Counted from the first letter of the stretch, positions 7,396 to 48,231 are shown. The stretch: DNA of 64,000 nucleotides from Prolixibacteraceae bacterium (GCA_963676375.2 CAXXPT010000012.1:3035-67034); one strand, 5' to 3'. The notes: generated from the sequence alone by a model not told the origin. Numbers and translations are program-made.

Positions 7396-7437
7396 ATATA
7401 TAATATTCCGGATTTTAAATTAAAAAACGTCAGACCA

Positions 7438-8121: not shown

Positions 8122-9587
8122 ACCAAATACTTTTTATGCCTCACCGTTTTTTAACTGTGAAACTTCTGAAATCCGGAATTATCTATCTTACTATTAGTGT
8201 GTTATTTTTGACGTTAGTAAGTCAAAAGGTATTTTCGCAGAACCTCCATACCCCTGTTTTTAAAGATGGAGACCGGGTTTGTTTTGTGGGGAACAGCATT
8301 ACCAACAATGCGCAGTTTTATAATTTCGTCAACCTCTATTATGCGACCCGTTACCCTGAACGCAGGATTGTTTTTATCAATTGTGGCATTTCAGGAGATG
8401 TAACGCAAGGAGTCATCAACCGGATGAAAGGGGATATTTTGGTTAACAATCCCACCTGGTCGGTACTGATGATCGGAATGAACGATGTCAACCGCGATTT
8501 ATATGCCAAATCCAGGCAGAACGAAGCAGGGATTGCACAAAAAAAAGAGGAAGCTCTGGCACTTTACCTGAAAAACCTGGAAATTATTATTCAGGAATTA
8601 ACCAAAGATGGCCGGAGACTTATCATTCAAAAACCTTCCATTTACGACCAGACCAGCAAATTGGCTGCGGAGAATCTGTTCGGGGTAAATGATGCATTGA
8701 AACAATGTGCCGATTTTACTCAGGTTTTGGCTGATAAGTATAATTTGCCGGTGGTCGATTACTGGACCATCTTAACTGAAGTCAACCGAACCATCCATAA
8801 AAAAGACTCTACTGCAACCATTGTCGGTAAGGATCGGGTTCATCCCGGTGCACCAGGTCACCTGGTTATGGCCTATGAGTTTTTGAAATCGACAGGCGCT
8901 GATGAATATGTTTCGAAGATGGTGATCGGGAAGCGGGTGAAAAAAAGCAACAGGCATAGCGACAACTGTTCAATCCGGAATATCGTTTTCAGGAAAGGAA
9001 AAATTGAATTTGAGGTGAAGGAAGGGAGTTTGCCATTCCCAGTGGAACAGGATGCCAAACCTGCTCTAGACCTTGTTCCTTTCACCGATCGTTTTAACCA
9101 GGAGGTGCTTCAGGTTGCAGACATTCCGTATGGAGAATATCAGCTATCTATCGATGGACTTCAGATCGGGACCTATACTTCTATGGAATTGAGGAAAGGG
9201 ATTAATCTGGCCCTTATAGAAAATACCCCGCAATATCTTCAGTCTGTGAAGATAATGGCCCTCTACACTGAATACAGGAATACACAAGCCATTTACCGGA
9301 ATATTGTAACTGTTGAAATCTGCAATTTACCGGATTCCCTGAAAAATGCTTCACTGGAAAGAAAAGAGATTTTTCTGAACGAGGATCTGGAACAAAAACG
9401 AAAGACAGCTAACAATTATGAGTACTATAAGTGGAGATTCGGATCATACATTTCCAATAAAAATGCACAGGCTGAAATTGAAAAGAAAATACCAGAATTA
9501 ATTGAGGATGTTTCCCGGACGAATAAACCTGTATTCCATACTTTCAGTCTTGAGAAAGCTAAAACATCTATGCTTCAAAGAAAATAA
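8118..9587 (+). CDS. SGNH/GDSL hydrolase domain protein with uncharacterised C-terminal extension
   Basis: Block I FVGNSITNN and block V DRVHPGAPGH. Its ATG overlaps the upstream stop (ATGA). Confidence 0.75.
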   Translation: MNQILFMPHRFLTVKLLKSGIIYLTISVLFLTLVSQKVFSQNLHTPVFKDGDRVCFVGNSITNNAQFYNFVNLYYATRYPERRIVFINCGISGDVTQGVINRMKGDILVNNPTWSVLMIGMNDVNRDLYAKSRQNEAGIAQKKEEALALYLKNLEIIIQELTKDGRRLIIQKPSIYDQTSKLAAENLFGVNDALKQCADFTQVLADKYNLPVVDYWTILTEVNRTIHKKDSTATIVGKDRVHPGAPGHLVMAYEFLKSTGADEYVSKMVIGKRVKKSNRHSDNCSIRNIVFRKGKIEFEVKEGSLPFPVEQDAKPALDLVPFTDRFNQEVLQVADIPYGEYQLSIDGLQIGTYTSMELRKGINLALIENTPQYLQSVKIMALYTEYRNTQAIYRNIVTVEICNLPDSLKNASLERKEIFLNEDLEQKRKTANNYEYYKWRFGSYISNKNAQAEIEKKIPELIEDVSRTNKPVFHTFSLEKAKTSMLQRK

Positions 9588-28892: not shown

Positions 28893-30440
28893 TTATTTGT
28901 AATAGTTTTTCCCTCGTATGTTGTTGTGTTCGGGCAATTCCGGATCTTCTGTTGTCTCATCCTTAATCATATCCAGGTTGTTTTCAAGGATGTTTTGTAT
29001 GGCTTTAAAACTATAGGTTCCAAAGTCAAGAGCACGTTTGCAGGCATTGATAAGTCTTTGTTTGCCAACCTTCTTTTCAAACGAAAGTATTCCCATACAA
29101 CTTTTAAACGCCTGCTCAGGATGGTTTCGGCTTTCAATGATTTTAAAGATATATTCCCCGGCAACCGGGTCGATACTGTTTGCCCAATTGATAAACCGGG
29201 GAGCAGTCCAATCGGTTACAAATTGATGGGTGCTCGCTAAATGTTCGGGTGTGGTTGTGTAGCTGTAAAGTGCGTAGTCCCGGGGATGGGTAGCCAACCG
29301 ATTGTATTTAAAGTAAATCTCGACCGTTGTTCTGGTGTACATCACCTTCACCTTTTTGCGGATGTATTGATACGGCACGCTATAAAAATGTTTGTCACAA
29401 CTAAGCTGCACATGACCATTTTGCATGACCGTTGCCTGCGCCTGATACTTGATCTCAAAGCGTTGGATGGGCAGTGGCGACAGTTTGTCCTTCTCGATGT
29501 CATTGTATAGCTCAAAACGTGTGTATGGACGGCCGGTGAGCTTTCTGTTGTTGTGTGCATCCAACAGGTCGCCAACGCGATCGTTCAGTTCCGCGATGGA
29601 GAAAAACGTTTCGTCCTTCAGTGCAGCATAAATCCTGCGGTATAATATTTTAACAGCACCTTCAACTAATGATTTGTCCCGTGGTTTATAAGCTCTGGCG
29701 GGTAGAATAGTGGTTTCGTAATGTTCTGCCAGATCTACCAGTGTTTCGTTGATGGTGGGCTCAAAACGGCTGCTTTTTATCACCGCTGACTTTAGATTGT
29801 CCGGAACTATGGCTGCCGGAACGCCTTCAAAAAAACGCATGGCATTTTCTACCGATACAACAAAATCTTCCTTCTTTTGGCTGGGCGTGGCTTCTGCATA
29901 GGTATATTGGCTTGCTCCTAAAACAGCAACAAAAAATTCTACTTCACTTACCTCTCCTGTATCTTTTTCAACCACAGATAGCTTCTTGCCTGCATAATCA
30001 ACAAACATCTTGTCGCCTGCCTTGTGGTTCATGTGCATCACCGGGTTTACCTTCTGGCTCCACAGTTTGTAATACTCCCGGAACTGAGAGCTTTGATAAC
30101 CCCCGGGATATTTTTTAATGTACTCTTCCCACATACACTGGCCCGTGACGCCAACCCGTTTGAGCTCCCGTTCCATATGAGGGAAAAACTCATATAGCTT
30201 TTGTAATCGAGGGCTAATGGACTCTTCCGGAGGGTGTGAAAACAACGTTTCCAACTCAAGGTCAGTCCTTTGATTGATCTCTTCAATGGTCAACCCCTGA
30301 ACTTCAAAAAGGGAAATATACTTCTTTACTGTATTTCTTGATAAGGATAAATATTGGCTTATAAACAGCTTACTTTTCCCGCTGCAATGCAACTTAATCG
30401 CTTTTCTAATTTTACTCATGTCCGTTAATTTATTTGCCAT
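28893..30440 (-). CDS. istA: IS21-family transposase IstA
   Basis: 515 aa with an N-terminal HTH and a DDE integrase core. It lies immediately upstream of istB. Confidence 0.9.
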   Translation of the reverse strand: MANKLTDMSKIRKAIKLHCSGKSKLFISQYLSLSRNTVKKYISLFEVQGLTIEEINQRTDLELETLFSHPPEESISPRLQKLYEFFPHMERELKRVGVTGQCMWEEYIKKYPGGYQSSQFREYYKLWSQKVNPVMHMNHKAGDKMFVDYAGKKLSVVEKDTGEVSEVEFFVAVLGASQYTYAEATPSQKKEDFVVSVENAMRFFEGVPAAIVPDNLKSAVIKSSRFEPTINETLVDLAEHYETTILPARAYKPRDKSLVEGAVKILYRRIYAALKDETFFSIAELNDRVGDLLDAHNNRKLTGRPYTRFELYNDIEKDKLSPLPIQRFEIKYQAQATVMQNGHVQLSCDKHFYSVPYQYIRKKVKVMYTRTTVEIYFKYNRLATHPRDYALYSYTTTPEHLASTHQFVTDWTAPRFINWANSIDPVAGEYIFKIIESRNHPEQAFKSCMGILSFEKKVGKQRLINACKRALDFGTYSFKAIQNILENNLDMIKDETTEDPELPEHNNIRGKNYYK

Positions 30441-30888: not shown

Positions 30889-31704
30889 ATGGCAGCAATA
30901 CCTAAAATTCCGATAGAGATATTAAGAAAGTTATGCGACATTATTGGTGAAACATCTAATGGGCTTTCAAATACTGAGATATCTAAGATGCTCGCTGACT
31001 GTCAAATCAATGATGTTGCCCCAACCCTTAATAAAAGGACAAGAGTATATGAGGCTTTAATTAATAAACAAAATCAAGACAATTGCTCAAATAATATTTT
31101 GAAATTTATTACAACATTTGTTAGTCCAGTAAGCTATATCGGAAATAAGAATCTACACACTGAAAGACTTGGTTACATTAATGAAGTTTTATTATTTGCA
31201 GGATTACAAATTGATGAGAGAGGAACTTTATTAAAGGCAACTGCAGCAAAGACAATAGACGAAGCACAAGAACGCGCTGGTCGTTTAAAGAAAAAACTTG
31301 TTGATAGAGCCGTTCATTCCGATGTCATCAGATTTTGTAACGCAGAACTTCTTCAAGAGAATTATTTTCATGCTGTCTTTGAATCAACAAAAAGCGTAGC
31401 AGATAAGATCAGGGAAAAAACAGGTTTGACACTTGATGGCGCAGACCTTGTAGATAAAGCATTTGGACTTGGACCAACGAACACTCCTAAACTTGCATTT
31501 AATTCCTTGCAGACAGAATCTGAACAAAGTGAGCATAAAGGATTTGCTAATTTACTCAAAGGATTATTTGGAATGTTTAGAAATGTGACAGCACACGTTC
31601 CAAAAATAAAGTGGACGATTAATGAAGAAGATGCACTTGATAGTTTAACAATGGCTTCACTATTACATAGAAAACTTGATAAATGCGTACCGACAGGATA
31701 CTAA
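30889..31704 (+). CDS. HEPN-superfamily protein (Ymh / TIGR02391-like)
   Basis: 271 aa. The C-terminal domain carries an Rx4H motif, R231-NVTA-H236 (FGMFRNVTAHVPK), as in the Ymh clade of HEPN. Confidence 0.65.
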   Translation: MAAIPKIPIEILRKLCDIIGETSNGLSNTEISKMLADCQINDVAPTLNKRTRVYEALINKQNQDNCSNNILKFITTFVSPVSYIGNKNLHTERLGYINEVLLFAGLQIDERGTLLKATAAKTIDEAQERAGRLKKKLVDRAVHSDVIRFCNAELLQENYFHAVFESTKSVADKIREKTGLTLDGADLVDKAFGLGPTNTPKLAFNSLQTESEQSEHKGFANLLKGLFGMFRNVTAHVPKIKWTINEEDALDSLTMASLLHRKLDKCVPTGY

Positions 31705-32014: not shown

Positions 32015-33166
32015 TTATTGGTGGTTCCGGATATTTTGTGCGTAAAAGCTTGTTGGAGAACGGACCCGTGGCAATTCCTCGACCCGTTGCATGGTTCCCT
32101 GTTTGCAATACGGACACCGACATACATCGAAGCCCGTCAACCGTTTGATTCGCTCCCGCACGTTTTCTTTGGGCTTGAGGCTGATCTCCGTTTTAGGGTT
32201 TTGCTTTTGCTTCAATGCCCTTGCACGGCTGCTGTAAATGCCATACCGGCGTATCTTTACAAAACGGTGCGGCAAAATGTGCTGGCAAAACCTCCGGAGA
32301 AATTCCACCCCGGTGAACGTGACTGGTTTTTGTTTAGCTCCATTGCGATAATCTTTGTGGCGAAAAGTCACACCTGTTTGGTCAACTTTAATTATCCGCT
32401 GGTTGGTAATGGCCACCCGATGTGTGTATTGTCCCAGGTACCTAACCACATGTTCTGCTTTAGCCAGCGAGGGTTCACAATTCACCGACCAGGGTTTGTT
32501 TCTTGCCGCTTTGAGCAAAGGTTTGTACTGCTCATATAACGATTGTTTTTTTAGCCGGCTTTCGATGCATTCCATCAGCTTTCCCCGAAATACCGAGCTT
32601 AACTGTCTGACCGGATACAGGTATTTTCCACTACTCCCAATGTGCTTCATATTTCCGGCAAGTGTTTCCCCTGCTGCCGGAACAATGCAATGAATGTGAG
32701 GGTGCAGACTCAGGTTTTGCCCCCAGGTGTGCAGCACACACACTGCTCCTGTTTCCACCCCGAAACGAGTATAACCCAGTTGGCGCAGGGTTTCCCAAAC
32801 AGCGGAAAACAAACGAATGTAAAACCATTGGCTGTCCAACAGGCAAATGGCATTCAATTCGTGCGCAACCGTGAACACAATATGGTAATGTTTTACCTCA
32901 AGTGTGGTTTCAAGTAAGTCTTCTACCCAGAATGCCTGCTTTGATCCCTGACATTTGGGGCAGTGGCGGTTGCGACAACTGTTATAGCTGATCCGATGTT
33001 TGCCACAGCAATCACATACCTCTTTATGGCCACCTAATTCCGAACTACGGCAAATGCTCAGGGCATTCAGTACCCTTTGCTGGTAACTGTTGGGATGATA
33101 TTCCGATGTAAACTGCGCTCCAAATTGCCGGATTACATCGGCAATCTCGTATTGCGGGCGATTCAT
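32015..33166 (-). CDS. IS91-family (HUH, Y2) rolling-circle transposase
   Basis: N-terminal zinc-binding CDCCG...CRNRHCPKCQ, an HUH-type LHPHIHCIVP, and a Y2 region VVRYLGQYTHRVAI. Confidence 0.9.
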   Translation of the reverse strand: MNRPQYEIADVIRQFGAQFTSEYHPNSYQQRVLNALSICRSSELGGHKEVCDCCGKHRISYNSCRNRHCPKCQGSKQAFWVEDLLETTLEVKHYHIVFTVAHELNAICLLDSQWFYIRLFSAVWETLRQLGYTRFGVETGAVCVLHTWGQNLSLHPHIHCIVPAAGETLAGNMKHIGSSGKYLYPVRQLSSVFRGKLMECIESRLKKQSLYEQYKPLLKAARNKPWSVNCEPSLAKAEHVVRYLGQYTHRVAITNQRIIKVDQTGVTFRHKDYRNGAKQKPVTFTGVEFLRRFCQHILPHRFVKIRRYGIYSSRARALKQKQNPKTEISLKPKENVRERIKRLTGFDVCRCPYCKQGTMQRVEELPRVRSPTSFYAQNIRNHQ

Positions 33167-34065
33167 TTCTTTACCCGGTACAGCGTATCCAGAGGGCTGT
33201 GTGCCTTAATCAGCGGACATTGGGCAACGTGAAGATAAATCATCGTGGTGGCAATGTGTGCATGCCCCAGAAGTTCTTTTAGGGTAACAATGTTCAGACC
33301 TTCTTCCAGCAAATGGGTGGCATAGGTGTGCCGTAGCGAATGCAGGGTGACCTCTTTTCGGATCGCGGTTTTCTTCAGCGATTCGCGCATTACCCACGAC
33401 AGACCCCGAACGCTGTAGCGGCCATCGGGTTCATGCCCGTTAAAAAGCCAGATGTGCGGATGCTCTGCCTGAAGGTACTTCTTCAGCCCTTTGGCCATAT
33501 TATCAGCCAGCGGAACGATACGGTCTTTCTTGTACTTGCTTTGCCGGATGTGAATGGTTCGGCGCTCGAAGTCGATGTCCGACAGTTTCAGGTTGACCAC
33601 TTCCTGCCCACGGAGCCCGGCCGAATAAATCAGCGTTAACACAATGCGGTGTTTGAGCAGCGTGGGTGCCTTAAACAGTTCTTTCAGCTCCGAACGGTTC
33701 AGGATAACGGGCAACTTTGCCTCCTTTTTGAGTGAGGGCAGGGAAATGACTCTTTTGTTTTGTCCGATCAGCCTGAAATAATACCGCAATCCATACACAG
33801 CATGCTTAAACGTGCTTCGCGAAGCTGATTTAGCAGACAAGGCAAGCCCGGTTAGGTATTCGTTGATTTCCTCATCCATGACATGTTCGGGCAACCGTTC
33901 AAAATGAAGCGAGATTTGCGCAATGCGCCGGATGTAATTATCAAGGGTGCTATGGCTTTGGCCACGAAGGGTAACTTGTTGATTAAGCAATTTCAAGGCA
34001 GCAGCAAAGCCTTCAATGGTTTCTGTGGCATGTTCCACGATTGTTTGTCCTGATTTCTTTCTCAT
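33163..34065 (-). CDS. tyrosine recombinase with integron-integrase-like C-terminus
   Basis: Catalytic LRHTYATHLL and LGHAHIATTMIYLHV. HV is followed by 9 residues then SPLDTL, the same spacing as IntI1 (HV-x9-SPLDAL). It lacks the roughly 40-aa IntI-specific insertion. Its stop overlaps the transposase ATG (ATGA). Confidence 0.85.
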   Translation of the reverse strand: MRKKSGQTIVEHATETIEGFAAALKLLNQQVTLRGQSHSTLDNYIRRIAQISLHFERLPEHVMDEEINEYLTGLALSAKSASRSTFKHAVYGLRYYFRLIGQNKRVISLPSLKKEAKLPVILNRSELKELFKAPTLLKHRIVLTLIYSAGLRGQEVVNLKLSDIDFERRTIHIRQSKYKKDRIVPLADNMAKGLKKYLQAEHPHIWLFNGHEPDGRYSVRGLSWVMRESLKKTAIRKEVTLHSLRHTYATHLLEEGLNIVTLKELLGHAHIATTMIYLHVAQCPLIKAHSPLDTLYRVKK

Positions 34066-34297: not shown

Positions 34298-34329
34298 GCA
34301 ATTAGACTTAACCACGAATTAAGCAACAT

Positions 34330-35898
34330 ATGAATGATGAATTAAAATATATATTGACAGATTTTCTCAATATTAAAACCGATTCCTTTAAGAAAGAAAT
34401 TTCAGACGGAATTGAGTTTAGTTTATCATTTCCTCTTCCTTCGATAGGTTTTTCAAATAGTAGGATTGATATTATTAGAGATTATACTGAGGTTTCATAT
34501 TGCTGTGAAGAAATAGCTCCTTTTATAACAATACTAAATTCAGATTTTGTTACAAGGGAGAAATATTATAAGGACTTTAAATTTTCATGTATAGCCAATG
34601 ATGTAGAATCCCTAACAGAGAAATTAGTATTCTTTGCTGAAATGTTACATGGAGACTCTTCTGATTATGATGATATTGATAGAATATGCTTCTTTGATGA
34701 GCTTTCTGAATATGAAGAAAGTTATTCAAAAAGAGAATTTGTTTTTCCTGAATTAATTAATAATTACTGGGCAAACCTAATTAATGGAGCATATTGGGAG
34801 TTCGCATCAGAATATGAGGAATCTGAAAGTAAATTCTTCGCTAAAACATATAAAAAATATCCAGAGCACAGATACGGATTTTGGAAAAGTCCTCTATCCA
34901 AAGATTTTAAAGAGCCAATTTTTTTCTCAACTGAAAACTGGATTATACCACCAAAAACAGACTTGATTGAATCTTTAAAAATTTACTCAGGTTTAGAACA
35001 TAAATTAGTTTTAGAAGCAGCAGATAGAATTGACTACCAAGATCAAATAATATTGTTAAGTAATTCAACTGCTGTTCGTTTTTCTCAGGAAAATGACTTG
35101 ATAAACTCAATAAAATGTACCGAAAGAGCTCTGATGCTTAAAAACAATAAGATTGATAGTGTTAAAGTAACCAATTTGAATAAAACTATTGTACAGAAAG
35201 ATCTATTTGGAGAAGAAGTTCAGCAAAAGAAAGTGAATAAACGAATTAGGCATAATGACAATATCCAAGTTGATTATTCAAAATTAAAATTCAGTCTTTC
35301 AGAATATGGTGATTTAGTAACAGTTGAATACAATAATTATACTCATGTATTCTTTTATAATGAGCCACTTACATTTGATAAAATCAAAGACTTAAATTCT
35401 TATTTGTATCCTGCATTTTCAAAAACACAGAAATTAATTGACAATTCAATAACTGGTACTTGTGACTGGACAAAGTTAGACGATGATTCTTTTGAGGAAC
35501 TATGTTATGATATTTTATATTGTCACCCTCATTTTGATTTCACTACAATAAAAAAAATGGGAAAGTCAAAGTCGAGAGATGGTGGACGTGATATTACAAT
35601 AAAAACAAGAAGGACTCCTACTAAAGAACCAGAACTCTATATATTTCAATGTAAGTTTTTATCCGAAAAGACATCATTATCGACTTCTAAATTACCAAAT
35701 GCGGGAAATGTAATAATGCAATTTGGAGCAAAAGGATATGGCGTTTTTACAAGTACTGTAATTGACTCTACTTTGTATGACATGTTGGATGGATTTAGTC
35801 GGAATATGCATGTTGATACTTCATTTAGTTGGTCGAAGTATGAACTTGAAAGACATCTAAATAAAAATGTAATGATTAAGGATAAACATTTCAAATAA
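34330..35898 (+). CDS. Mrr-type (PD-(D/E)xK) restriction endonuclease domain protein with uncharacterised 370-aa N-terminal region
   Basis: The C-terminus FEELCYDIL...SRDGGRDITI...LYIFQCKF matches the Mrr_cat pattern. The gene is very AT-rich. Confidence 0.65.
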   Translation: MNDELKYILTDFLNIKTDSFKKEISDGIEFSLSFPLPSIGFSNSRIDIIRDYTEVSYCCEEIAPFITILNSDFVTREKYYKDFKFSCIANDVESLTEKLVFFAEMLHGDSSDYDDIDRICFFDELSEYEESYSKREFVFPELINNYWANLINGAYWEFASEYEESESKFFAKTYKKYPEHRYGFWKSPLSKDFKEPIFFSTENWIIPPKTDLIESLKIYSGLEHKLVLEAADRIDYQDQIILLSNSTAVRFSQENDLINSIKCTERALMLKNNKIDSVKVTNLNKTIVQKDLFGEEVQQKKVNKRIRHNDNIQVDYSKLKFSLSEYGDLVTVEYNNYTHVFFYNEPLTFDKIKDLNSYLYPAFSKTQKLIDNSITGTCDWTKLDDDSFEELCYDILYCHPHFDFTTIKKMGKSKSRDGGRDITIKTRRTPTKEPELYIFQCKFLSEKTSLSTSKLPNAGNVIMQFGAKGYGVFTSTVIDSTLYDMLDGFSRNMHVDTSFSWSKYELERHLNKNVMIKDKHFK

Positions 35899-35903
35899 TA
35901 AAA

Positions 35904-36037: not shown

Positions 36038-36091
36038 CAGGATACGAATTAGCGGAATCTATTTTGCATTATTGACTTAAATATTTAGAAT

Positions 36092-36643
36092 ATGAAAATT
36101 GCATGTTTAGGTTGGGGATCATTAATTTGGCAACCCAAAAACCTACTTATTAGGAGAGAATGGTTTTCGGATGGACCGTTTTTACCAATCGAATTTGCAA
36201 GAAAATCACAAGATGGCAGATTAACACTTGTGATAACGGAGACAGCTAAACCGATTCGGACATTGTGGGCATTAATGGCGACAGAAAATCTCGATACTGC
36301 TAAAAATTCTTTGCTAGTTCGAGAAGGAATTCCCACAAAAAATATAGATAGTTCTATCGGATCAATAACAATAACAGAAGAAACTGAGAACAAGATAAAG
36401 TTGATTATAAGGGACTGGGCAAATAGGCAGGGACTAGATGCTGTTATATGGACAAACCTTCCACCAAAGTTTGATGCGAACACTTGTGAACCCAGTTTAA
36501 TTCAAGCAATTGATTATTTAAAATCTTTAGATATAAATTCAAGATCAAATGCCGAGGAATATATCAGAAAAACGCCGAAACAAATTGATACGGATTTTAG
36601 ACGGAAATTTGAATCAGAATTTGATTGGACATTTGTTTCTTAA
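36092..36643 (+). CDS. gamma-glutamylcyclotransferase-like (ChaC/GGCT fold) protein, tentative
   Basis: The N-terminal ACLGWGSLIWQP resembles the ChaC/GGCT signature [FY]GYGSLIW. The protein is 183 aa. Confidence 0.4.
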   Translation: MKIACLGWGSLIWQPKNLLIRREWFSDGPFLPIEFARKSQDGRLTLVITETAKPIRTLWALMATENLDTAKNSLLVREGIPTKNIDSSIGSITITEETENKIKLIIRDWANRQGLDAVIWTNLPPKFDANTCEPSLIQAIDYLKSLDINSRSNAEEYIRKTPKQIDTDFRRKFESEFDWTFVS

Positions 36644-36683
36644 CGCACGAACGCACAACATCCAGAAGGTGGAAGATTTGAGC

Positions 36684-36902
36684 ATGCTTATCGAAAAATG
36701 GCGCAAGCCCACCGAAACCAGAAGGAACCTGCAAACCTTCTCTCTGGGAGCAGATGGGTTGGGTGCAACAGTATTCCTTTGGGACGCATCAGGAAAAGAG
36801 GTTAAAACTTCTAACACTCCGGTAGTATTCGCTGTGATGGAAGAAATCAAAACGACTTTGGATGAACGGATCAAAGAAGTTGAAACCCAGATCAAGTTCT
36901 GA
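36684..36902 (+). CDS. small hypothetical protein or gene fragment (72 aa from ATG 36684)
   Basis: The ORF lies in a locally GC-richer segment and is followed directly by a strong hairpin. The upstream part of track ORF 36549 overlaps the previous gene and is probably not translated. Confidence 0.3.
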   Translation: MLIEKWRKPTETRRNLQTFSLGADGLGATVFLWDASGKEVKTSNTPVVFAVMEEIKTTLDERIKEVETQIKF

Positions 36903-36904
36903 AA

Positions 36905-36933
36905 AAAGAAAGAGGCGAAATGCCTCTTTCTTT
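36905..36933 (+). terminator. stem-loop terminator candidate
   Basis: AAAGAAAGAGGC-gaaat-GCCTCTTTCTTT forms a perfect 12-bp stem starting 2 nt after the stop codon. Confidence 0.55.
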
Positions 36934-37042
36934 AAGAGTATGAATAGAGTACTTTTATTAGTCAGAAAACAAAAAATAGTAATTGACAATTGACTCTTAT
37001 TGTTTATCTTTGATATAATATTAAAATTCAATTACAACTCCA

Positions 37043-38320
37043 ATGTATATTATTACGGTACTTAAGGATAAATCCATCAAAGAGGAAATCAGTAAATTAT
37101 TCAGCATTAGAGATTCTTATGATACCATACACATAAAACTCCCTTTAATAGAGTGGATTAGTGCGAATAGCCTGAATTTTCTTGTGACATTTATTGTCTC
37201 CAATAGATATCATTTCCATTTTAAAAAGATTATTATCGAGCTTTTTGAAGCTAAAATTATCTCAGACGTATTAGAAGAAAATGATGTTTCTGAGGAAATA
37301 CTTGACTCATTGACCAAAAAATTAATATTCTATGAGTCGATGGAGTTATATGAGAATATAAATTATGATTATGTTATACAGTTTCCAAACTGCGATACCT
37401 TAAAAAAAGTGAAGGAGTTATTGGTTTCTCATGAATATGAAAAAAAATGGATGTATTCTTCCAAGATGCTGGCGCTTAATCCTCTAATTAATGACGAAAA
37501 AGAACAAATATATCTTACTGCCCGGCTAAATACATTGACAAATATTATATTTCATAATCTATATGGTAAAGTAGATTATGGTGAGGCAAGAGAGGCTAGC
37601 TCCCAGATAATGTATGAACTCGTGAAGAATATATATCAACACGCATATAGTGAGGATATTAGTGCCAGACTGGAGAAACACGGTATAGCCTGTGCGCAGA
37701 TTAATAAATTTCCAATTATCCAAAATAAAGAATATAGTTTAAAGGATATTAGCGGAATTTTAGAATTGGTTAAAAAAAGGACGAAAGGCAAAGTCTGGAA
37801 ATTTTTATCCATTTCGATTTGTGATTTCGGTGTTGGTATTAATTCAGTAATTAGAACAGATTTGAAAAGTAAGTTGACAAGTGAGAAAAGCGATTTTACG
37901 ATCGGTGAATTTACTGTGAATGAAGAATTATTGGCGGATGACTATAAGTTGATCGAGATCCCCATAAGAACTGAGTATAGTACCAAGACTTTATCCGACA
38001 AAAGAGAAGATTGGACAATTAGTAAAGAAAGAAAACTGGTACTTTCTAGAAGGGGGCGGGGATATATTTTCTGCATTTGCTTCGTTGGCGAATTTTTTGG
38101 AAGGATGCAGATTCGAAGCAATAATTATGTATTGGATGTCTTTGCCAAAGAAAGTGCTGCATTGAGAAGTACTAAGTGGAGAACAGAACCCGAAGAATCA
38201 CTTGCTATCATTGAGAAAGAATTTGGGAATTACTTTCAAATAATACAAAAAAAAGAAAAAGGATTTTTCCCAGGAACTCAAATCATAATCGAAATTCCAG
38301 TCGAAGTTTTTCAAAATTGA
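37043..38320 (+). CDS. GHKL-type ATPase-like protein (histidine-kinase/anti-sigma-kinase-like ATP-binding fold)
   Basis: N-box-like E192-LVK-N196-IYQHA, G1-box-like D261-F-G-V-G265, RRGRGY, and the terminal GTQIIIEIP typical of HATPase_c ends. The N-terminal 180 aa are uncharacterised. Confidence 0.55.
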   Translation: MYIITVLKDKSIKEEISKLFSIRDSYDTIHIKLPLIEWISANSLNFLVTFIVSNRYHFHFKKIIIELFEAKIISDVLEENDVSEEILDSLTKKLIFYESMELYENINYDYVIQFPNCDTLKKVKELLVSHEYEKKWMYSSKMLALNPLINDEKEQIYLTARLNTLTNIIFHNLYGKVDYGEAREASSQIMYELVKNIYQHAYSEDISARLEKHGIACAQINKFPIIQNKEYSLKDISGILELVKKRTKGKVWKFLSISICDFGVGINSVIRTDLKSKLTSEKSDFTIGEFTVNEELLADDYKLIEIPIRTEYSTKTLSDKREDWTISKERKLVLSRRGRGYIFCICFVGEFFGRMQIRSNNYVLDVFAKESAALRSTKWRTEPEESLAIIEKEFGNYFQIIQKKEKGFFPGTQIIIEIPVEVFQN

Positions 38321-38330
38321 CATTATTACA

Positions 38331-40334
38331 ATGAGTTATAATTGGAACGAAGTAGCATTGGTTGATTTAAAAAATCAGCCTTTTAGAAATAATAATGGTA
38401 TTGAAATAAATTTATTGGATTATCTGTTTAATCAGATTAATCTAATTGTTAAGCAACAAGAGCTTAGTCAAAAAAATAGTTTTGAAAAATTCAGGCAAAG
38501 TCGCTGTTTGATTTGTTTGGATTCGGTAAATATATCAAATGAAGATTGCTCGCTTTTGGACACTCTTATCCCAGTAAGTGAAAAACATCCATTTATTTTA
38601 ATCAATTGTTCTGTTGATTCTATCAATCTTTTTTCACTTGCATTACATGCCGATTTTCAAAGGCTGGGGTACATTTTACCCATATTTGGACAATTAACAC
38701 CAATTGATCCTGTTTATGTCAAAGAAAAGTATGGAATCAAATTTTATGAATTTTTAAATGGAGAAGTTGACACGCTTTCAATCTCGGATTTAAAAGATCC
38801 CGACAAAGTTTTGGTTGATGATATTCTTAGAAGGTATTCATATCTCGAATGCATAAATGATGTTTTAAGGTTTGTGGATAATCACATTGAATGGTTGGGG
38901 GTCAAATCTAAAAAATTCAAAGACCTGCTAAATCATTTATATTCAAGTAATAGGGAATGTTTTGATCCCCAGTGGGCAGTCAATACTTTTGGTGTCTCTG
39001 AAAGTGAATTAAATCGTTATAGCCAAAGTTCAATGCTGTTCAGCAAAGAAGGTGATCAAATCAGGTTCAGATTTCTAAAAAGCAATTTGTTTTTAAAGAT
39101 TCAGTCAAAACTATACTACCAATTTGAAGAAAAAATGATCGAAGCCGAAGCTTTGCAGGTCTATAGAAAAACCAAAGCAGGCGAAAGCAGTTTTAATGAG
39201 TATCATAATATTGGGAGGGTCTTTGAAAATACAGATCGGTATAAGCTTAAGTTACTGGCGGCATTCAAGAAGAAAATAGCATATCATTTTCCGGACTTTC
39301 TCTATCCTCAGCAGAAATCAATTATCTTGATTGATAACGGTTATGAATCAGGAATGTATTTCCTGCTAAAAAAGTATTTCCCCAGCAAAAAGGTAACCAG
39401 AATTCTGAATTGCCATGATCATCCAATAATTTACCCGTTTGATGAAGAGATTAATAGTTCAGATAACGCAATTGTGGTAATTGATCTCATCAATACCGGT
39501 AATTTTCTTAGTAAAGTAGTCAAAATGGTAAAGGATATGTATAAAGCGGAAATCTTCGCAGTTTATACATTCGTTATTAATGGCTCAATAGCGACAAATC
39601 AGATCAGTTCCGCACCTATTTTTTCATATGTGGAAAAGAAACTTGAAAAGTCAGATGAAATAAAGGATATCTTACATGCAACCAGAGACAATGCTCGTGA
39701 CAATTTCAGATATAAAAGCTTTTGGCAAATCATTAATAATGTGGGCAGCATTGATGGGAAAATTCAACAAAATGTCGTTAGAAAGGGAGGTTCTATTTTT
39801 TATACACTATACAGAAACAAGATTTTTGTTGACGTAAAAAATCCTTCTTTTGAAACGACTGATTTTAATGTTTTTTTGGGAACAATAATAACATCGAATA
39901 ACATTAATAAAATAATTTTTCTCAGCGAGAACTCGAAATCGTTTTTCCATTCACTGAATGATTTTTCTAAGTATACGGTTAACTCGGTGATTTTTAATAG
40001 TAAAAGCAAAACATTTTCATCCCAAATTTTTGACTCGGATCGGATTCTAATTTTGGATGTTACCTTATTAAGCGGACACAACATCGAAGCTTGTTTAACT
40101 GAATTAGATAAAAAAGAATACCATAATCGTAAAGTTTTTGTCGCTGTTTTCTTTGAGAAAAGGATTATCGATGAAAATGTTATTGGTAAAATTGATTCTT
40201 TAGTTAATCTGCACCCGGAATTGAAGGGAAAAATCTTTAAATATTACACAAGTAATATTCCTTTTTATAAAATTGATAAAGACTCAATTAATTCAAGCAG
40301 AATAAAAAATAGTTTAGAAAAATATAAGAAATGA
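38331..40334 (+). CDS. protein with two phosphoribosyltransferase-like (type I PRTase) segments
   Basis: AIVVIDLINTGNF (aa 380-392, nt 39468-) and RILILDVTLLSGH (aa 571-583, nt 40041-) resemble the PRPP-loop pattern (hydrophobic x4, acidic, xxx[TS]G). Each is preceded by a beta-strand/Gly segment (SIILIDNGYESG). Each has one acidic residue rather than two. Confidence 0.45.
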   Translation: MSYNWNEVALVDLKNQPFRNNNGIEINLLDYLFNQINLIVKQQELSQKNSFEKFRQSRCLICLDSVNISNEDCSLLDTLIPVSEKHPFILINCSVDSINLFSLALHADFQRLGYILPIFGQLTPIDPVYVKEKYGIKFYEFLNGEVDTLSISDLKDPDKVLVDDILRRYSYLECINDVLRFVDNHIEWLGVKSKKFKDLLNHLYSSNRECFDPQWAVNTFGVSESELNRYSQSSMLFSKEGDQIRFRFLKSNLFLKIQSKLYYQFEEKMIEAEALQVYRKTKAGESSFNEYHNIGRVFENTDRYKLKLLAAFKKKIAYHFPDFLYPQQKSIILIDNGYESGMYFLLKKYFPSKKVTRILNCHDHPIIYPFDEEINSSDNAIVVIDLINTGNFLSKVVKMVKDMYKAEIFAVYTFVINGSIATNQISSAPIFSYVEKKLEKSDEIKDILHATRDNARDNFRYKSFWQIINNVGSIDGKIQQNVVRKGGSIFYTLYRNKIFVDVKNPSFETTDFNVFLGTIITSNNINKIIFLSENSKSFFHSLNDFSKYTVNSVIFNSKSKTFSSQIFDSDRILILDVTLLSGHNIEACLTELDKKEYHNRKVFVAVFFEKRIIDENVIGKIDSLVNLHPELKGKIFKYYTSNIPFYKIDKDSINSSRIKNSLEKYKK

Positions 40335-41470
40335 TAGAAAACATTGAAGACCAATTAATATCCAATTCAATGGATATCTTGTCAAAACTCAGGGATGATG
40401 AGATGCTTGTTTCTGTATTTTTTATTGATCAGATTAATTTTTATAGAGATAAGAAATTAGCATCTTATTTTATTAACAAGATTCTAAGTGAAAATCAAAA
40501 ATTTGGAAGAATAAAAATTGCTGGAATTGTTGATGCAATTTATGAATATCAACTAAGCTCTTCAATTTCAGAGGAAGTTGTAGAAAGCTTAATTCGACTG
40601 GTTGAAAATTACTTTTATGATAATGACTCATCGGACACTTCTTGGATAAATAAGGTTCTGGATATCGTGCTTAATTCATACAGCCCCAGAAAATTGGAAA
40701 TGCTTATTGATATTTTGAGTTTGCGGTTTAAGCCCTATCCTGAAAAGCATTTTGGGATTTTTTCAGAAAAATTGCTGAAAACGATCTTAATAGAAAAAGA
40801 ATTAAATGTCAATTTTAAATATCAAGCCAAAATTTACAAACTTAAAATTGAGGATGCAAGTAAAGAAGAGGAAGAAAAAAACATAAAACATCATATAAGT
40901 CGAATAATTAAAGAATTAAGTATGATCCCATCAAAAAAAATTATTGATGTTTTTATTTCATATTCTCATGAAGGTGATGAGCATAAAACTAAGGTGATCG
41001 AATTTACCAATCATTTAAGAAAGTTAGGCTTTAACGCCAAGTGTGATTTCTTTTTAAAACAACAGGAAACATCCATTGATTTTGATGAAATGATGTTGGA
41101 CCAGATATCACGTTCTGATAAAATAATTTTAGTACTAACCGAAGAATATAAAAGGAGAGCTGATGATACAAAGCAATCTGGTATTAAAGATGAAATGAAA
41201 TTAATAAAACAGATACTTGAAAAGAGTGATAATAAAATAATTTTGGTCTCATTCAAGTCTCTGCCACAACAGATAAAACCCGACCAAATTACTCCACTTT
41301 GGTTAGCATCTAGGGAAGTGATCGATCTAAAAGATGACATGAATCACGGTTTACGAACCTTAATCTCAAAATTGAAAGAAATTGAATTATTGAATTTTGT
41401 CGAAGTAAATTCAGAGCAAAGTGAAATTGAATCAGAGAAAATAGGGAATTTTACTCTCGATGATATTTAG
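40331..41470 (+). CDS. TIR-domain protein with helical N-terminal region
   Basis: DVFISYSHEGDEH at aa 206-218, ILVLTEEY, and SGIKDEMKLI containing a candidate catalytic Glu288. Its ATG overlaps the upstream stop (ATGA). Confidence 0.7.
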   Translation: MIENIEDQLISNSMDILSKLRDDEMLVSVFFIDQINFYRDKKLASYFINKILSENQKFGRIKIAGIVDAIYEYQLSSSISEEVVESLIRLVENYFYDNDSSDTSWINKVLDIVLNSYSPRKLEMLIDILSLRFKPYPEKHFGIFSEKLLKTILIEKELNVNFKYQAKIYKLKIEDASKEEEEKNIKHHISRIIKELSMIPSKKIIDVFISYSHEGDEHKTKVIEFTNHLRKLGFNAKCDFFLKQQETSIDFDEMMLDQISRSDKIILVLTEEYKRRADDTKQSGIKDEMKLIKQILEKSDNKIILVSFKSLPQQIKPDQITPLWLASREVIDLKDDMNHGLRTLISKLKEIELLNFVEVNSEQSEIESEKIGNFTLDDI

Positions 41471-41508
41471 AATAACTACAAAATTAATTTTGGTTTTTTG
41501 TATGCAGA

Positions 41509-42059
41509 TTATTTGACGTTTTTTATCAAAGTGAACTCGTCTTTTCTATTCCGAAGTTCAATTGCTTTATCAATGTAAGCTCCAACCCCCTTGATAAAGT
41601 CCACCCATTTTACTGATTCGATGTACGAACAATCTTCAGGATAAACCTAGAGTCTGTTACACAGATTTCTTTGAGGCGCTTTTGTGTTGAACATGTTGTC
41701 TATAAGTATTTTTAATAATGTCGGTGTATTTAATCTTAGGCAATTGCATATTGGATCATAGGTAATGTAATAATCATACCTGCTGTTTTCATCGGGCAGA
41801 ACAACCGCGATAACTCCGTTGGTTTTACTTCGTTGGCCTTGCCTGCAGTTCCTTTAAAGAATATGAAATTCCATGCTCTCGCCGTCGTCCTCACCATTGT
41901 AGATGTGGTCATCGTTTTCAAGCATTTCAGCTAGTTTATCTACATAATGCCGTGCTGTCGTCGGAATCTTCTGCCGAAAAAATCGACTACTTCATAAATA
42001 TTCAAATCTTCTACCAGCGAATCAGAATATTTGTATGAAACAAAGACTTTTCTTCCCAT
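41509..42059 (-). pseudogene. decayed ThsB-like TIR (DUF1863-type) gene
   Basis: The minus strand reads MGRKVFVSYKYSDSLVEDLN..., then needs frameshifts to continue TARHYVDKLAEMLENDDHIYNGEDDGES, ...SKTNGVIAVVLPDENSRYDYY..., NMFNTK... and YIESVKWVDFI. There are at least two stops or frameshifts, and a central segment is missing. Confidence 0.6.
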
Positions 42060-42061
42060 AT

Positions 42062-42655
42062 CTAAATTTGATCAATAAGTAAATCCTGAAAAAGAGACAT
42101 GTACTCATAATCGTGGAGTAAACGCTCGTTTTTTTTGACTTGCCGCAACCTATCGTAAACCAACTTTGAAGCTGCTCCGGTACTTGCTATAGGCAGGATA
42201 AGAGCTTTGGAGTTATACTTTCGGAACATTTCGTATTCTTCCAGGATTCCGTCCATACCACCAATAAAGATTGCAGCTGTGAAGTTATTCTCCGAAAACA
42301 TTCTTTCCCGCATCAATCTTACACTTGATTCTTTTGTTCCTGAAGTTCTGGTTAGAATGACATTATTAAAATCAAAATTGGACGCATGGAAATTCTCTAT
42401 GAAGAATTCCGATTGATAGAGAGTGACATGGTCTTGAATATCCATGTTCAATTTCTCCAAAACGTTATAAATAATCGGAGTGATCGACGGGTGACCTCCC
42501 CAAATTAATTTAAACCTTGGCAGTATACTAATTGCAAGGGCAATTACGGCATCCCGAATAGCAATGACATCAGCCGTTTCGAAATATTTTGGATCTCTTT
42601 CTTTTAACGGGATACTCGCGGAAAGGAATATATTTTTTAATTTGTCTGAAACCAT
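42062..42655 (-). CDS. standalone SLOG/LOG-like (STALD-type) domain protein
   Basis: 197 aa with LIWGGHPSITP, then FIGGMDGILEE (GGxxGxxxE-like) and PIASTGAA, which is the Rossmann/LOG pattern. Its start overlaps the upstream TIR gene by 19 nt. Confidence 0.55.
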   Translation of the reverse strand: MVSDKLKNIFLSASIPLKERDPKYFETADVIAIRDAVIALAISILPRFKLIWGGHPSITPIIYNVLEKLNMDIQDHVTLYQSEFFIENFHASNFDFNNVILTRTSGTKESSVRLMRERMFSENNFTAAIFIGGMDGILEEYEMFRKYNSKALILPIASTGAASKLVYDRLRQVKKNERLLHDYEYMSLFQDLLIDQI

Positions 42656-43803
42656 GATTCAAATTCTTGCTTTTTGATCGTTTTAACATCTAAATAAGTG
42701 TTAAGATAGTCTAAATGGCGTAACCACTTCTCTCTGATTCTAATATTGTCATAGATAAGAAAAACTTCGTCTACCGAGTATTGCTTGATCTCTCTCTTCA
42801 ATTCAGACGACTGATTGTAGTCGATCGACTGAGGTATACCAACAGACGGGATGAAAATTCTTCTTTTGGTTTCAGATAATTCCTCGGTTATGAACCGCTC
42901 AGGTTGTATGTTTACCCTTCTGCCGTTTTTTCTGGCTAAATTTAGGAATTCCGTGATCAGACTTTCCTCCCTGGCTGCCAGGTTTCGTGCCCTGATTGAT
43001 TCAACTTTTTGGATGATGTTGTTCACAACATCATCTGTCAGTCTCGAAAGATCCTTATCTCCATATATGTTGGATTTAAAACTATCAGTCTCTAATTGAT
43101 ATGGGAAACAAACTTCAGCCATTGGAGACAATGTCTCATCCGGCCAAATTAATTGCAATACACCAATTCGCTTGACACTTGCTTCGGCTATTTCTTTTTC
43201 ACACCATTCACTTTTTAAAAAATTTGGCGTGTTTAAAAGGACTATGACATCACAATCTGTCATTCGATGCCATAATTCTTCTTGGAAAGGTTCTCCCTGT
43301 TTGATGGAATGGGTATCGAGAAAAACGTCAAAGTTATTCTTTTCTAAGGCTTCGTATAATTGAATTGCAACGGACGAAGATTCGTCTCTCTTATAACTAA
43401 TGAAAACTTTTCTGGTGTTTCTTAATTTGCCAAAAGATTCCAGAATTAAACTAACTACTTTCTCTTTTTGGTAATGATCCCACTTAAGCCCATTCTGATT
43501 TTCAAGAATCTTTGGAATTTCATTTTTAAACGAATCATAAAAGATGGGCAGCACTATTTTACCAAGGCTGATGAGTCTTTCGACAATTGCGATATCCTCA
43601 TATTTTCTAGTAGGACTACCGAAATAAAGGGCGTAAGTCGGTTGATTGGCTTCGAAATCCCGGTCAAATTGCGATGCATAAATGACTCGGTAAAACTTTT
43701 CCTGAAGCTTTAGTTCTCTGATCCTTTGAAACAGTAAATCTATGATTTCATTAGCTAATTTTTCGGGACTTCCAAGAATAACTATTTGATATTTATATTC
43801 CAT
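42637..43803 (-). CDS. TIR-domain protein flanked by uncharacterised N- and C-terminal domains
   Basis: KVFISYKRDESSSVAIQLYEAL and NFLKSEWCEKEIAEA (a W-C-x2-E catalytic-Glu motif). The track starts at a TTG (43830), and I prefer ATG 43803 (MEYKYQIVILG). Confidence 0.7.
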   Translation of the reverse strand: MEYKYQIVILGSPEKLANEIIDLLFQRIRELKLQEKFYRVIYASQFDRDFEANQPTYALYFGSPTRKYEDIAIVERLISLGKIVLPIFYDSFKNEIPKILENQNGLKWDHYQKEKVVSLILESFGKLRNTRKVFISYKRDESSSVAIQLYEALEKNNFDVFLDTHSIKQGEPFQEELWHRMTDCDVIVLLNTPNFLKSEWCEKEIAEASVKRIGVLQLIWPDETLSPMAEVCFPYQLETDSFKSNIYGDKDLSRLTDDVVNNIIQKVESIRARNLAAREESLITEFLNLARKNGRRVNIQPERFITEELSETKRRIFIPSVGIPQSIDYNQSSELKREIKQYSVDEVFLIYDNIRIREKWLRHLDYLNTYLDVKTIKKQEFESWFQTN

Positions 43804-44317
43804 AATTTTGATCGGGGTATAATAATTCAATCGAAGTTTCCGCTCTGGTTTAACCCTTTTGGACTAGGCTTATTAGTATCATTCGAAGTAAAAAGACATT
43901 GAGTTATAGCTATTATGATTTTTCCCAACTCCAATTTTAACACAAATAATACTTCTACGGCACTTAAAATTTTTAATTTCACTGTAAATATAATAAAAGG
44001 CGATTTATCCATTGAGATGAAATCGAAATATTTTCACCTCTTTTTCTCTACTCACTCTGCCAAAGAAAGTAGCTATTTTGAATGCTCATAGATTTGATAT
44101 TAATAATCACTTTTAAGTCGCCATTACAAGAGCTATTAGAGATTGGTTATTTTTTAACTTAGATACAATTGACTTTCGTTGAAAAGCAACAGTTAGATTG
44201 TTTCACCCTTTGCATTCTATTCATTAAATTTGATTATATTTGTATTGTAATGAATTGAATATCAGGCGAGACTATATCGAGACCTGTTGAAATAAGCATT
44301 TAGTAAAACATTGATAA

Positions 44318-45529: not shown

Positions 45530-48231
45530 ATGAAGAAACGCTATTCAATAATTGCCTCACTTTTTTTAGTTTTTCTGAATTCGATTCTGTTTTCCGGATG
45601 CTCAGGAAAAGATAGCTTATCTGCCTTTCGTTCAGAAGTTTTATCGGAGAATTGGAAAATGCAGCCCACCAATAAGCTGACAGGGATGGACGAAAGTCTG
45701 ATCTCGGAAAACGGATTCGATACAAAATCGTGGTACGATGCTATTGTGCCGGGAACTGTAATGGGAGCCCTTTCGACCAATAAAGTGATTGAAGATCCAA
45801 CTTTTGGTATCAATATGAAAAATGTGGATCCAATCCTATTTCAGCAACCTTGGTGGTTCCGTAGTACATTCAAATTATCGGCTGACGATTTGAAAAGGGA
45901 TGTTTCGCTCCGGTTTAACGGCATTTGTTACCGCGCAGATTTATGGGGGTGAACGGTAAAAAAGTTGTTGGAAATGATACATTTGCCGGAACATACCGCA
46001 TGTTTTCTTTTAATATCAATCCATATATTCAGGAAGGTGAAAATACGGTTGCTTTAAAAATGGTACAGTTTGCCAATGGGGAATATACCCTTGGTTTTTG
46101 CGACTGGAACCCGCTTCCCACCGACCGCAGCATGGGTATTTTCAGAGAAGTATTTCTTGAAGTCAATGATGGGATAAAAATCAGGAGCCCATTTGTTTAT
46201 TCAAAAGTGGATACTGCATCAAAAAGCGCTGCTGATCTTTACATTCAGGCTGAAATTGTGAATAGCACAGATAAGCCTGTGGAAGGAATTGTTCGTGTCA
46301 ATTACGAAGTCGGACAAGTGGAGAAAAAAGTGACTGTTGAGGCGCACGACACACTTTCGTGCAAATTTGCCCCGGCTGATTTTAGCCAGCTTTCAGTAAA
46401 AAATGTTGAACTCTGGTGGCCTAATGGAATGGGGAAAGCCAAACTGTACAACCTGAAAACCGAGTTTGTTTCCGATAACAAAATCCTCGATCAGGTTGAA
46501 AAGAAATACGGAATCCGCGAAATCCGCAGTTATCTGAACGATCATAAAGACCGAACTTTCGAAATCAACGGCAAATTCGTTATGCCTAAAGGCGGGGGCT
46601 GGGCCGATGATATTTTCCTCCGCGACACCCGTAAATCAGTAGAATCGCAAATGCGCTATATCCGTCACATGGGACTGAACAGTATTCGCTGCGAAGGTTT
46701 CTGGGGGAAAGATGAAAACCTTTACGACCTGTGCGATGAATATGGTGTTTTGGTGATGATTGGCTGGAACTGTATTTGGGAATGGGAAGAATATCTATAC
46801 AAGCCCTGTCATGAAAAATACGGCGGTGCTGTTACTCCGGAAGACATAAAGCTTCTTTCTTTGATGTGGAAAGATCAGATGCTGTGGCTGAGAAACCATC
46901 CGAGCATTTATTTGTGGATGTTAGGAAGCGATAAGTTGCCAGATCCAAGACTGGAAACGAAGTATATTGAATTGTTCAAAAAATATGATCCGTCCCGTCC
47001 ATACTCAACTTCTGCTGGTGGCGCCGGAACCGAAACAAACAAAGTTGTAGCTGAAGTGCCTATTGTTAGCGATATCAGTGGTCCAAGTGGCATGAAAATG
47101 ATGGGACCATATGCTTGGACACCGCCTCACTATTGGTTTACCGACACTACCCTGGGTGGAGCATGGGGTTTCAACACCGAAACTTGTCCGGGAGCCAGCA
47201 TTGCACCTTTGGCTTCGCTTCGTAAAATGATGCCCGAAAAAGCGCTTTGGCCAATCGATAAAACATATTGGGAGTACCATACCGGCCGTAACGAATTTAC
47301 TTCGCTCGACCGCGATATAAACGCTATTGATCAACGCTACGGCAAATCTGCCAATATTGAAGAGTTTGCCTTTAAAGCTCAGGTGAACAACTACGAAATT
47401 ATGCGCCCCCAGTTCGAGGCTTTCATCGCCAACAAACCTAAAAGCACAGGGTTGGTGCAATGGCAGCTGAATTCGGCATGGCCGAAACTGATTTGGCAGT
47501 TGTACGATACTTATCTTCAACCGAACGGATCGTTTTATGGGGTGAAGAAAGCTTGTACGCCTCTTCATGCCATTTACAGATATGGGTTTGATGACATCTA
47601 TCTGGGGAACGAAGATTTGCAGACAGCCAAGAACCTGACTGTGAAAATCCGGGTTCTGGATATTCATTCCAAAGAAATATTCGCGGACCAGTGGACCGGA
47701 GAGATTCCTTCCAATATTTCGAAGTTCATATACAAACTTCCGGAAATTAAAAATCTAACTCCGGTTTATTTCCTTGATCTGCGGGTTTTCAATGCTGAAA
47801 ACAAAGAAGTGGACAACAGCATTTACTGGTTATCAACCAAAAAAGATGTGTTGGATTATGACGGATATAAAAAACTGTCATGGCCATTCTATACGCCAAC
47901 CAGCCAGTATGCCGATTATACCGCGTTGGATCAGTTGCCTAAAGTTAAACTCGGTTATAACTATCAATATACCAAAGACGATCAGTTTGGAAAGATTAAC
48001 CTGACCGTTAAAAACACCAGCGAATCAGTTGCTTTCTTTAATTTCTTCGATGTTCTTGATCCTCAAACAAAGTTGCCAATTCTGCCGATCTATTGGGACG
48101 ACAACTACGTGACTTTATTGCCTGGCGAAGAACGGACTTATAATGGCAGCTTCTTCCTTTCTGACTTTAACGGAGAAAAACCATTGATTGAGGTACGTGG
48201 GTGGAATGTTGAAAAAGCAACAATAAACTAA
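45530..48231 (+). pseudogene. glycoside hydrolase family 2 (beta-mannosidase/exo-glucosaminidase-like), reading frame broken at a G5 run
   Basis: The 140-aa N-terminal ORF ends ...RFNGICYRADLWG*. The 768-aa ORF continues VNGKKVVGN... in another frame. The junction lies at GGGGG 45945-45949. There is a lipoprotein signal. Confidence 0.75.

Follow-up and report, generated by a model that had tools for sequence, protein, structure and literature searches.

Analysis of a 64,000-nucleotide stretch of DNA from a Prolixibacteraceae bacterium (GCA_963676375.2 CAXXPT010000012.1:3035-67034, hereafter the window) showed three collinear minus-strand features at positions 41509-43803 (ORF listing and three-frame translation), which very probably form a type III Thoeris locus with an intact core of thcB4 and thcA, in which the only accessory ThsB-like TIR gene is a long-standing pseudogene, and which would act by the TIR-SLOG mechanism proposed below. 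The locus is a new copy of a known, already named and curated system and not a new system. The first-pass annotation, made from the sequence alone, had described a TIR gene, a SLOG gene and a broken TIR gene with a 19-nt overlap and a 2-nt gap, and all of these sequence claims were correct: thcB4 and thcA overlap by 19 nt (42655-42637), and 2 nt lie between the thcA stop codon and the pseudogene ATG at 42059. Its assignment of the locus to Thoeris-type TIR signalling was borne out, as both intact genes passed the equivalog models for type III Thoeris. The implied novelty of the architecture was not: it is that of type III Thoeris, with ThcA and ThcB proteins, and the equivalog models concerned are curated ones in NCBIfam. 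The window itself adds little, being one partly decayed copy that standard annotation models recognise. The by-products for the type III mechanism are a coupled, invariant ThcB4-ThcA core, its recurrent fusion, and the variability of the other TIR proteins. A promoter and terminator scan performed no better than on shuffled sequence. The features are given in Table 1.

Table 1. Features of the type III Thoeris locus and of the adjoining convergent operon (positions counted from the first nucleotide of the window).
Feature	Residues	Position	Strand	Source or remark
thcB4, 388-aa TIR gene		43803..42637	minus	ORF listing and translation, NCBIfam, PADLOC
ThcB4 N-terminal alpha/beta domain, family not assigned	1-128	43803..43420	minus	predicted layout
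ThcB4 TIR domain	~131-250	43413..43054	minus	predicted layout
ThcB4 catalytic-type glutamate of WCxxE	E204	43194..43192	minus	
ThcB4 long helix, then C-terminal domain	~255-388			predicted layout
thcA, 197-aa SLOG-only gene		42655..42062	minus	Pfam PF18180, NCBIfam NF058525
Accessory ThsB-like (DUF1863-type) TIR pseudogene, ThcB-type partner		42059..41509	minus	tblastn with intact orthologues
Convergent operon, five proteins, last one bSEFIR-like		36092..41470		
SEFIR/TIR protein of the convergent operon		40331..41470		38 bp from the locus

The ORF listing of thcB4 reached a TTG at 43830 (397-aa form), and the ATG at 43803 gives 388 aa; since ThcB4 homologues are nearly all 386-388 aa in length, the ATG was taken as the true start. 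ThcB4 matched NF058526 ("Thoeris type III anti-phage system protein ThcB4", equivalog, cut-off 220 bits) with 445.7 bits (E 1.2e-133), residues 5-382 aligning to positions 1-374 of the 375 in the profile. The PADLOC ThsB model PDLC00434, which makes the protein a ThsB variant, spanned all of it (E 5e-123), and Pfam TIR_2 was located at aa 142-219 of the 397-aa form (E 7.7e-17). The catalytic-type motif SEWCEKEI, which had been read in the 388-aa protein at first pass, was present, with W200, C201 and E204 invariant across 31 homologues. The TIR domain shared 47% identity with TIR 4 from the type III system published for P. aeruginosa L0872 (E 4e-36), in which the catalytic glutamate is also kept, as RWTDAE.

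The AF2 model of ThcB4 (pLDDT 78.5) matched SARM1 and plant TIRs on Foldseek with a probability of 1.0, in the TIR part only. The N-terminal domain was confidently predicted as alpha/beta; hhalign showed no relation of it to the TIR domain or to ThcA, and a search of PDB sequences gave no match to it. Neither the flanking domains nor ThcA received a structure-based fold assignment. A second-hand statement in Englert et al. (2026) has type III relying on a "NucS nuclease effector domain". Pfam and PDB sequence searches gave no NucS or PD-(D/E)xK match for the C-terminal domain of ThcB4, and the candidate acidic and lysine residues differ in conservation, not being kept from the Bacteroidota to the proteobacterial versions. 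In a review, NucS is assigned to different proteins from the study concerned.

ThcA was a full-length match to Pfam PF18180 LD_cluster3 (SLOG cluster 3; E 7e-57), with nothing else in Pfam above threshold, and covered positions 1-184 of the 184 in NF058525 ("Thoeris type III anti-phage system protein ThcA", equivalog, cut-off 110 bits) with 245.1 bits (E 3.8e-73). The 197-aa protein had been described as SLOG only on the strength of three motifs, and this description held over its whole length: WGGHPS, GGMDGILEE and PIASTGAA were found and are largely invariant across the family, and the Arg / GG / Glu / STG signature of SLOG proteins is kept, aligning with the matching part of the ThsA SLOG domain. 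Alignment on hhalign placed residues 113-173, in the C-terminal half of ThcA, on the STALD SLOG domain of ThsA with a probability of 80% as the single match, and the Pfam STALD score of 22.6 bits was below the cut-off of 24. The AF2 model of ThcA was mediocre (pLDDT 72.5), and Foldseek against the PDB returned nothing below E 0.01 for it, neither ThsA nor LOG; a profile search of PDB sequences with ThcA also gave no match.

The standalone state of the SLOG domain, which the first-pass annotation had singled out, is true of this locus but is no oddity. About 2,630 ThcA homologues were found, of which the best 120 were nearly all 191-203 aa long, the source-named entries among these 120 being from Bacteroidota; as a ThcB4 gene lies directly upstream in every related locus analysed, mostly with added TIRs, the standalone form is the family norm. 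There is next to no chance that a common LOG hydrolase of the cytokinin type, or a piece of DprA, merely happens to adjoin TIR genes here as the 197-aa protein: the general SLOG fold and the GGxxGxxxE motif would agree with such an identity, but the full-length matches were to PF18180 and NF058525 and not to a LOG or DprA family, and thcA adjoins thcB4 in 80 of 80 loci. Membership of LOG (Lysine_decarbox) is already refuted by the lack of a Pfam or NCBIfam match to that family and by the linkage to TIR genes in the same 80 loci.

According to Yirmiya et al. (2025), a defensive role of type III Thoeris in P. aeruginosa was reported by van den Berg et al. (2024; Cell Host Microbe 32:1427), and in Table S1 of the former preprint (bioRxiv 10.64898/2025.12.03.692087) the L0872 system is entered with a "SLOG - Type III" effector and with four TIR domains. 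The same preprint describes type III as multiple TIR proteins with a SLOG effector and uncharacterised signalling, and type IX as ThsB with ThsJ, an effector in which "TIR and SLOG" are fused. The window resembles the P. aeruginosa type III system in its order, a ThcB4-type TIR with a standalone SLOG cluster-3 ThcA directly after it and then a ThsB-like TIR, and both of its intact genes pass the type III equivalogs. Contigs with 71%-identical proteins, obtained with the TIR 4 domain of P. aeruginosa as query (L081 and L082, proteobacterial), lie near the Pseudomonas system and show the same order as the window, with a ThcB4-like gene followed by an LD_cluster3 SLOG gene and, after this, a ThsB_TIR gene. 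Unlike the four TIR domains of P. aeruginosa, the window has ThcB4 and one pseudogene TIR; the distribution of homologues points to a probable Bacteroidota host, and its ThcA is only 39% identical to the SLOG proteins beside the P. aeruginosa-like ThcB4 genes of these two contigs.

The window carries ThcA, a ThcB4-type TIR protein with N- and C-terminal extensions, the thcB4-thcA order and the TIR catalytic glutamate, all of which are features of type III; multiple further TIR proteins of the ThcB1-3 type were absent, the sole accessory TIR gene being the pseudogene. Neither the SIR2-STALD SLOG protein of type I nor the single TIR and SLOG effector of type IX was present. With type I (ThsA SIR2-SLOG and ThsB), the locus has in common TIR proteins and a SLOG nucleotide-sensing domain, and the C-terminal half of ThcA aligns to the SLOG of ThsA; unlike type I, the window has no SIR2 domain at the locus and its SLOG belongs to LD_cluster3 and not to STALD. 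The PADLOC ThsA models gave matches only at E >= 5e-4 over about 45 residues. With type IX, going by the description of ThsJ, the locus has in common a TIR and a SLOG together alongside separate ThsB-type TIRs, and relatives of the window genes occur as ThcB4-ThcA fusions; in the window, unlike type IX, the TIR and the SLOG are two overlapping ORFs, fused forms being found in relatives only.

With one genome scanned per species, 338 genomes proved to contain relatives; 80 loci were analysed, 72 of them with complete flanks. The first-pass annotation had proposed a survey of TIR-SLOG(-TIR) synteny and had made co-conservation of the TIR and SLOG genes a test of its reading, and the survey showed such co-conservation. 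In all 80 loci the gene immediately preceding thcA encodes a ThcB4 homologue, and the overlap is again 19 nt in most of them; one to four additional intact same-strand TIR genes lay within 1.6 kb in 68 of the 72 complete loci. Of the other four, three have their nearest TIR gene in a neighbouring module, and in L036 the nearest TIRs are more than 3 kb away. The accessory TIR genes belong to three families, c2 (TIR_2) and c3 and c4 (both ThsB_TIR), which occur in 0-4 copies and in varying order. The c2 family resembles TIR 1 of P. aeruginosa, and c4, which is the family of the window pseudogene, is intact (221-252 aa) in 53 of the 80 loci. The relatives often lie inside a type I restriction-modification operon, with hsdS on one side and hsdR on the other, and also beside AbiE-like, DUF262-like, ThsA, or MazG/HMUDK/TIR/Nmad2 modules, a neighbourhood typical of defence islands; in 5 of the 80 genomes the type III locus had a ThsA gene next to it.

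When 1.84 billion representative proteins were searched with a profile, 1,154 ThcA relatives were obtained, and among the best 150 of these were fusions of 572, 592, 600 and 735 aa, consisting of a complete ThcB4 followed by a complete ThcA. The fusions form at least three to four diverged clusters and are regarded as real because three of the clusters contain several distinct members from independent assemblies. Taken together, the fusions, the invariant adjacency and the overlap speak for ThcB4 and ThcA acting as a single physical unit.

From these patterns we infer that the pair works as one TIR-SLOG module and that the variable TIR proteins are its sensors. On the proposed mechanism, the accessory TIRs would sense the phage and, upon infection, produce an NAD-derived signal, possibly of the cADPR-isomer type, which would be bound by the SLOG domain of ThcA; the signal-bound ThcA would then activate ThcB4, through the TIR NADase of the latter or through the domains that flank it, and the module would execute the response by the logic of the type IX effector, in which "TIR and SLOG" are fused. 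The variability of the accessory TIRs resembles the multiple ThsB sensors of other Thoeris types. Taken together, the coupled core, its recurrent fusion and the variable TIRs suggest that ThcB4-ThcA may be a TIR-SLOG module in two parts, with a relationship to the effector of type IX. The suggestion made at first pass that the effector could reside in the extra domains of the TIR protein is partly favoured by the natural fusions. Since all the TIR proteins keep the catalytic-type glutamate, signal makers and effectors cannot be told apart by sequence. In the preprint of Yirmiya et al. (2025), 3'cADPR is reported not to activate the fused type IX effector, so the trigger of type III may be more complex. 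One preprint reports that type III shows no abortive-infection phenotype.

A tentative alternative is that ThcA is the effector and ThcB4 its dedicated signal-making TIR, so that the two-gene remnant in the window would still be a working minimal system; ThcA could then be a LOG-type N-glycosidase degrading nucleotides or an oligomerising SLOG, and the accessory TIRs would merely widen the phage range. In the literature it is the SLOG protein and not ThcB4 that is named as the type III effector (Yirmiya et al. 2025). The GGxxGxxxE motif of ThcA, with its invariant glutamate, is LOG-like and is accompanied by R116, and N-glycosidases are described among SLOG clades (PMC9503650). However, no Pfam LOG/Lysine_decarbox match was obtained, the fusions point to joint action and not to a diffusible signal between the two proteins, and with an accessory TIR kept in nearly all complete loci, no clean natural two-gene form was seen.

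The third gene had been described as a DUF1863/ThsB-like TIR gene broken by frameshifts, stops and an internal loss, and comparison with intact orthologues confirmed this. The region matched the intact ThsB_TIR proteins of 221-252 aa in related loci with up to 52% identity (E 1e-71), and tblastn of the orthologues from L012, L019 and L009 onto the window (about 51% identity) mapped four lesions: a frameshift between ~41979 and 41955, a 45-codon in-frame deletion at ~41866/41865, and two in-frame stops, TAA at 41856..41854 and TAG at 41649..41647. The deletion (...SSVTVVLVSKG...QWIPWEISYSLKE) takes out the catalytic core, with the strand-loop region that bears the catalytic WxxE motif. The conceptually repaired product had no Pfam or NCBIfam match; it was 31% identical (E 4e-32) to one ThsB_TIR protein of the TIR 4-like contigs, and the nearest match of the pseudogene among the listed Thoeris TIR domains was a type IX ThsB. 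No remnants of the c2 and c3 accessory TIR families or of hsd genes were found in the window.

The Logan metagenomic contig L083, whose SLOG protein is 97% identical to the window ThcA, has the deletion and both stops in common with the window and carries small indels of its own. Because this independent contig has the same lesions, the decay is real and no assembly error, and it therefore predates the split of the two lineages. On the proposed model this copy has lost its only dedicated sensor and is most likely impaired, or limited to what ThcB4 senses itself; in broader terms it may be impaired, narrowed in range, or heading for loss.

ThcB4 and ThcA are encoded by full-length ORFs and keep every invariant residue. 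Where they depart from conserved columns the exchanges are conservative (Y>F, K>R, D>E), the window copy tying for the most such deviations among 31 aligned sequences. Long-term omega against a more distant relative was 0.14-0.16. Between the two pseudogene-bearing lineages, thcA differs by 6 nonsynonymous and 4 synonymous substitutions, with an omega of 0.40 versus 0.16 over the long term, a value resting on only 10 substitutions. That both genes are intact in two lineages having the dead third gene in common could mean that the pair works without an accessory TIR; this, with the low long-term omega, also speaks for ThcA as the effector of a minimal two-gene system.

A second tentative alternative is that the whole locus is a dead remnant, in which thcB4 and thcA have been drifting without a function since the accessory TIR was lost. 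A pseudogene old enough to be common to another contig, the raised thcA omega, the tied-highest deviation count and the occurrence of further decayed copies among the related loci (L026 and L033) are consistent with it, but ten substitutions are too few to tell relaxed from purifying selection, the 19-nt overlap is maintained, and the full-length frames with their invariant residues and conservative deviations speak against it. A further and improbable reading is that the pair is a split TIR-SLOG effector, like type IX in logic and perhaps in descent, which survives as an orphan and is kept because signals from other TIR systems of the cell, for example the neighbouring bSEFIR operon, can trigger it or because ThcB4 can sense phage by means of its N- and C-terminal domains.

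The preferred reading, a type III module with its own accessory sensor lost, was also compared with the first-pass suggestions that ThcA is a buffer or sponge restraining TIR signalling, or that it really partners the convergent TIR/SEFIR operon, at a distance of 38 bp, both of which are very unlikely. In favour of the first idea, signal sponges occur in phages, and in favour of the second, the SEFIR/TIR protein ends beside the locus. The thcA gene, however, is always paired with thcB4 and in some relatives fused to it, and it is the entire system, ThcA included, for which defence has been reported. The proposed partnership with the convergent operon was not upheld, as none of its five proteins, nor the 522-aa protein upstream of that operon, had a homologue in any of the 80 related loci. 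The surroundings of the locus are low in GC (~0.30-0.37, the figure elsewhere being ~0.43) and also contain IS elements and further defence genes.

In about 26-31 of the 80 type III Thoeris loci analysed, including L005, L007, L014, L018, L019, L023-L025, L027, and L031, the Thoeris genes were inserted into a type I restriction-modification operon, with hsdM-hsdS on one side and hsdR on the other. The same gap sometimes also took DUF262-like, AbiEi/AbiEii-like or Schlafen/AlbA_2-like genes. A four-gene module coding for MazG+MazG_C, HMUDK_hel (helical domain of the 5-hmdU DNA kinase), a small ThsB_TIR protein, and Nmad2 repeatedly adjoined the Thoeris genes, often in convergent orientation, and was found in about 11-14 of the 80 loci (L015, L016, L017, L028, L030, L032, L036, L039, and L048 among them).

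Among the ThcA-related proteins, full-length natural fusions of the TIR protein ThcB4 with the SLOG protein ThcA (P0265, P0371, P0400, and P0284; 572-735 aa) were obtained from several independent assemblies. ThcA was fused to ThsB_TIR in one case (P0396, 371 aa) and to a receiver domain in another (P0267, 392 aa). The ThcB4/ThcA pair was also carried by an Escherichia coli plasmid (L085), within a cluster that held a further four TIR genes along with a patatin-like gene whose annotation reads "CBASS cGAMP-activated phospholipase". Similar pairs were present on 29 plasmids, including those of Klebsiella, Citrobacter, Enterobacter, Rhizobium, and Sphingobium. Decayed copies of type III Thoeris were seen in further genomes (L026 and L033). 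Coordinates are shown in the table below.

Positions of features in the window and in related contigs
Feature	Location	Strand	Remarks
IS21-like transposase	window 28893..30440		borders low-GC island
HEPN-type protein, 271 aa	window 30889..31704	+	PADLOC PD-Lambda-3_B (E 1.9e-81); Pfam Hypoth_Ymh
IS91-type Y2 transposase	window 32015..33166		borders low-GC island
Tyrosine recombinase	window 33163..34065		adjoins IS91-type transposase; borders low-GC island
Low-GC island	window about 34000-45500		
First gene of island, 522 aa	window 34330..35898		no family match
Convergent operon	window 37043..41470, with 36092..36902 upstream	+	ORFs abutting or overlapping
Glycoside hydrolase family 2, 140-aa ORF	window 45530..45952	+	apparently split gene
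Glycoside hydrolase family 2, 768-aa ORF	window 45925..48231	+	apparently split gene
Locus with ThcB4/ThcA pair, L085	NZ_CP034659.1, 205196..214736		conjugative IncHI1B megaplasmid
Decayed Thoeris copy, L026	8602..9210 and 7279..8597		all three genes in fragments
Decayed Thoeris copy, L033	6847..8019		thcB4 broken into two

The operon convergent to the Thoeris locus of the window had no homologues in any of the 80 type III Thoeris loci. Two of its products were a 425-aa protein with no family match and a 667-aa protein with weak phosphoribosyltransferase-like matches and no others. A further product, of 379 aa, carried a C-terminal SEFIR/TIR domain that matched the PADLOC bSEFIR model (E 3e-28). 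The listing for bSEFIR gives one gene only, so the three-gene form here may merit separate attention. The two glycoside hydrolase family 2 ORFs overlap by about 28 nt, and the apparent split could be a frameshift (a pseudogene or else an error in the assembly).
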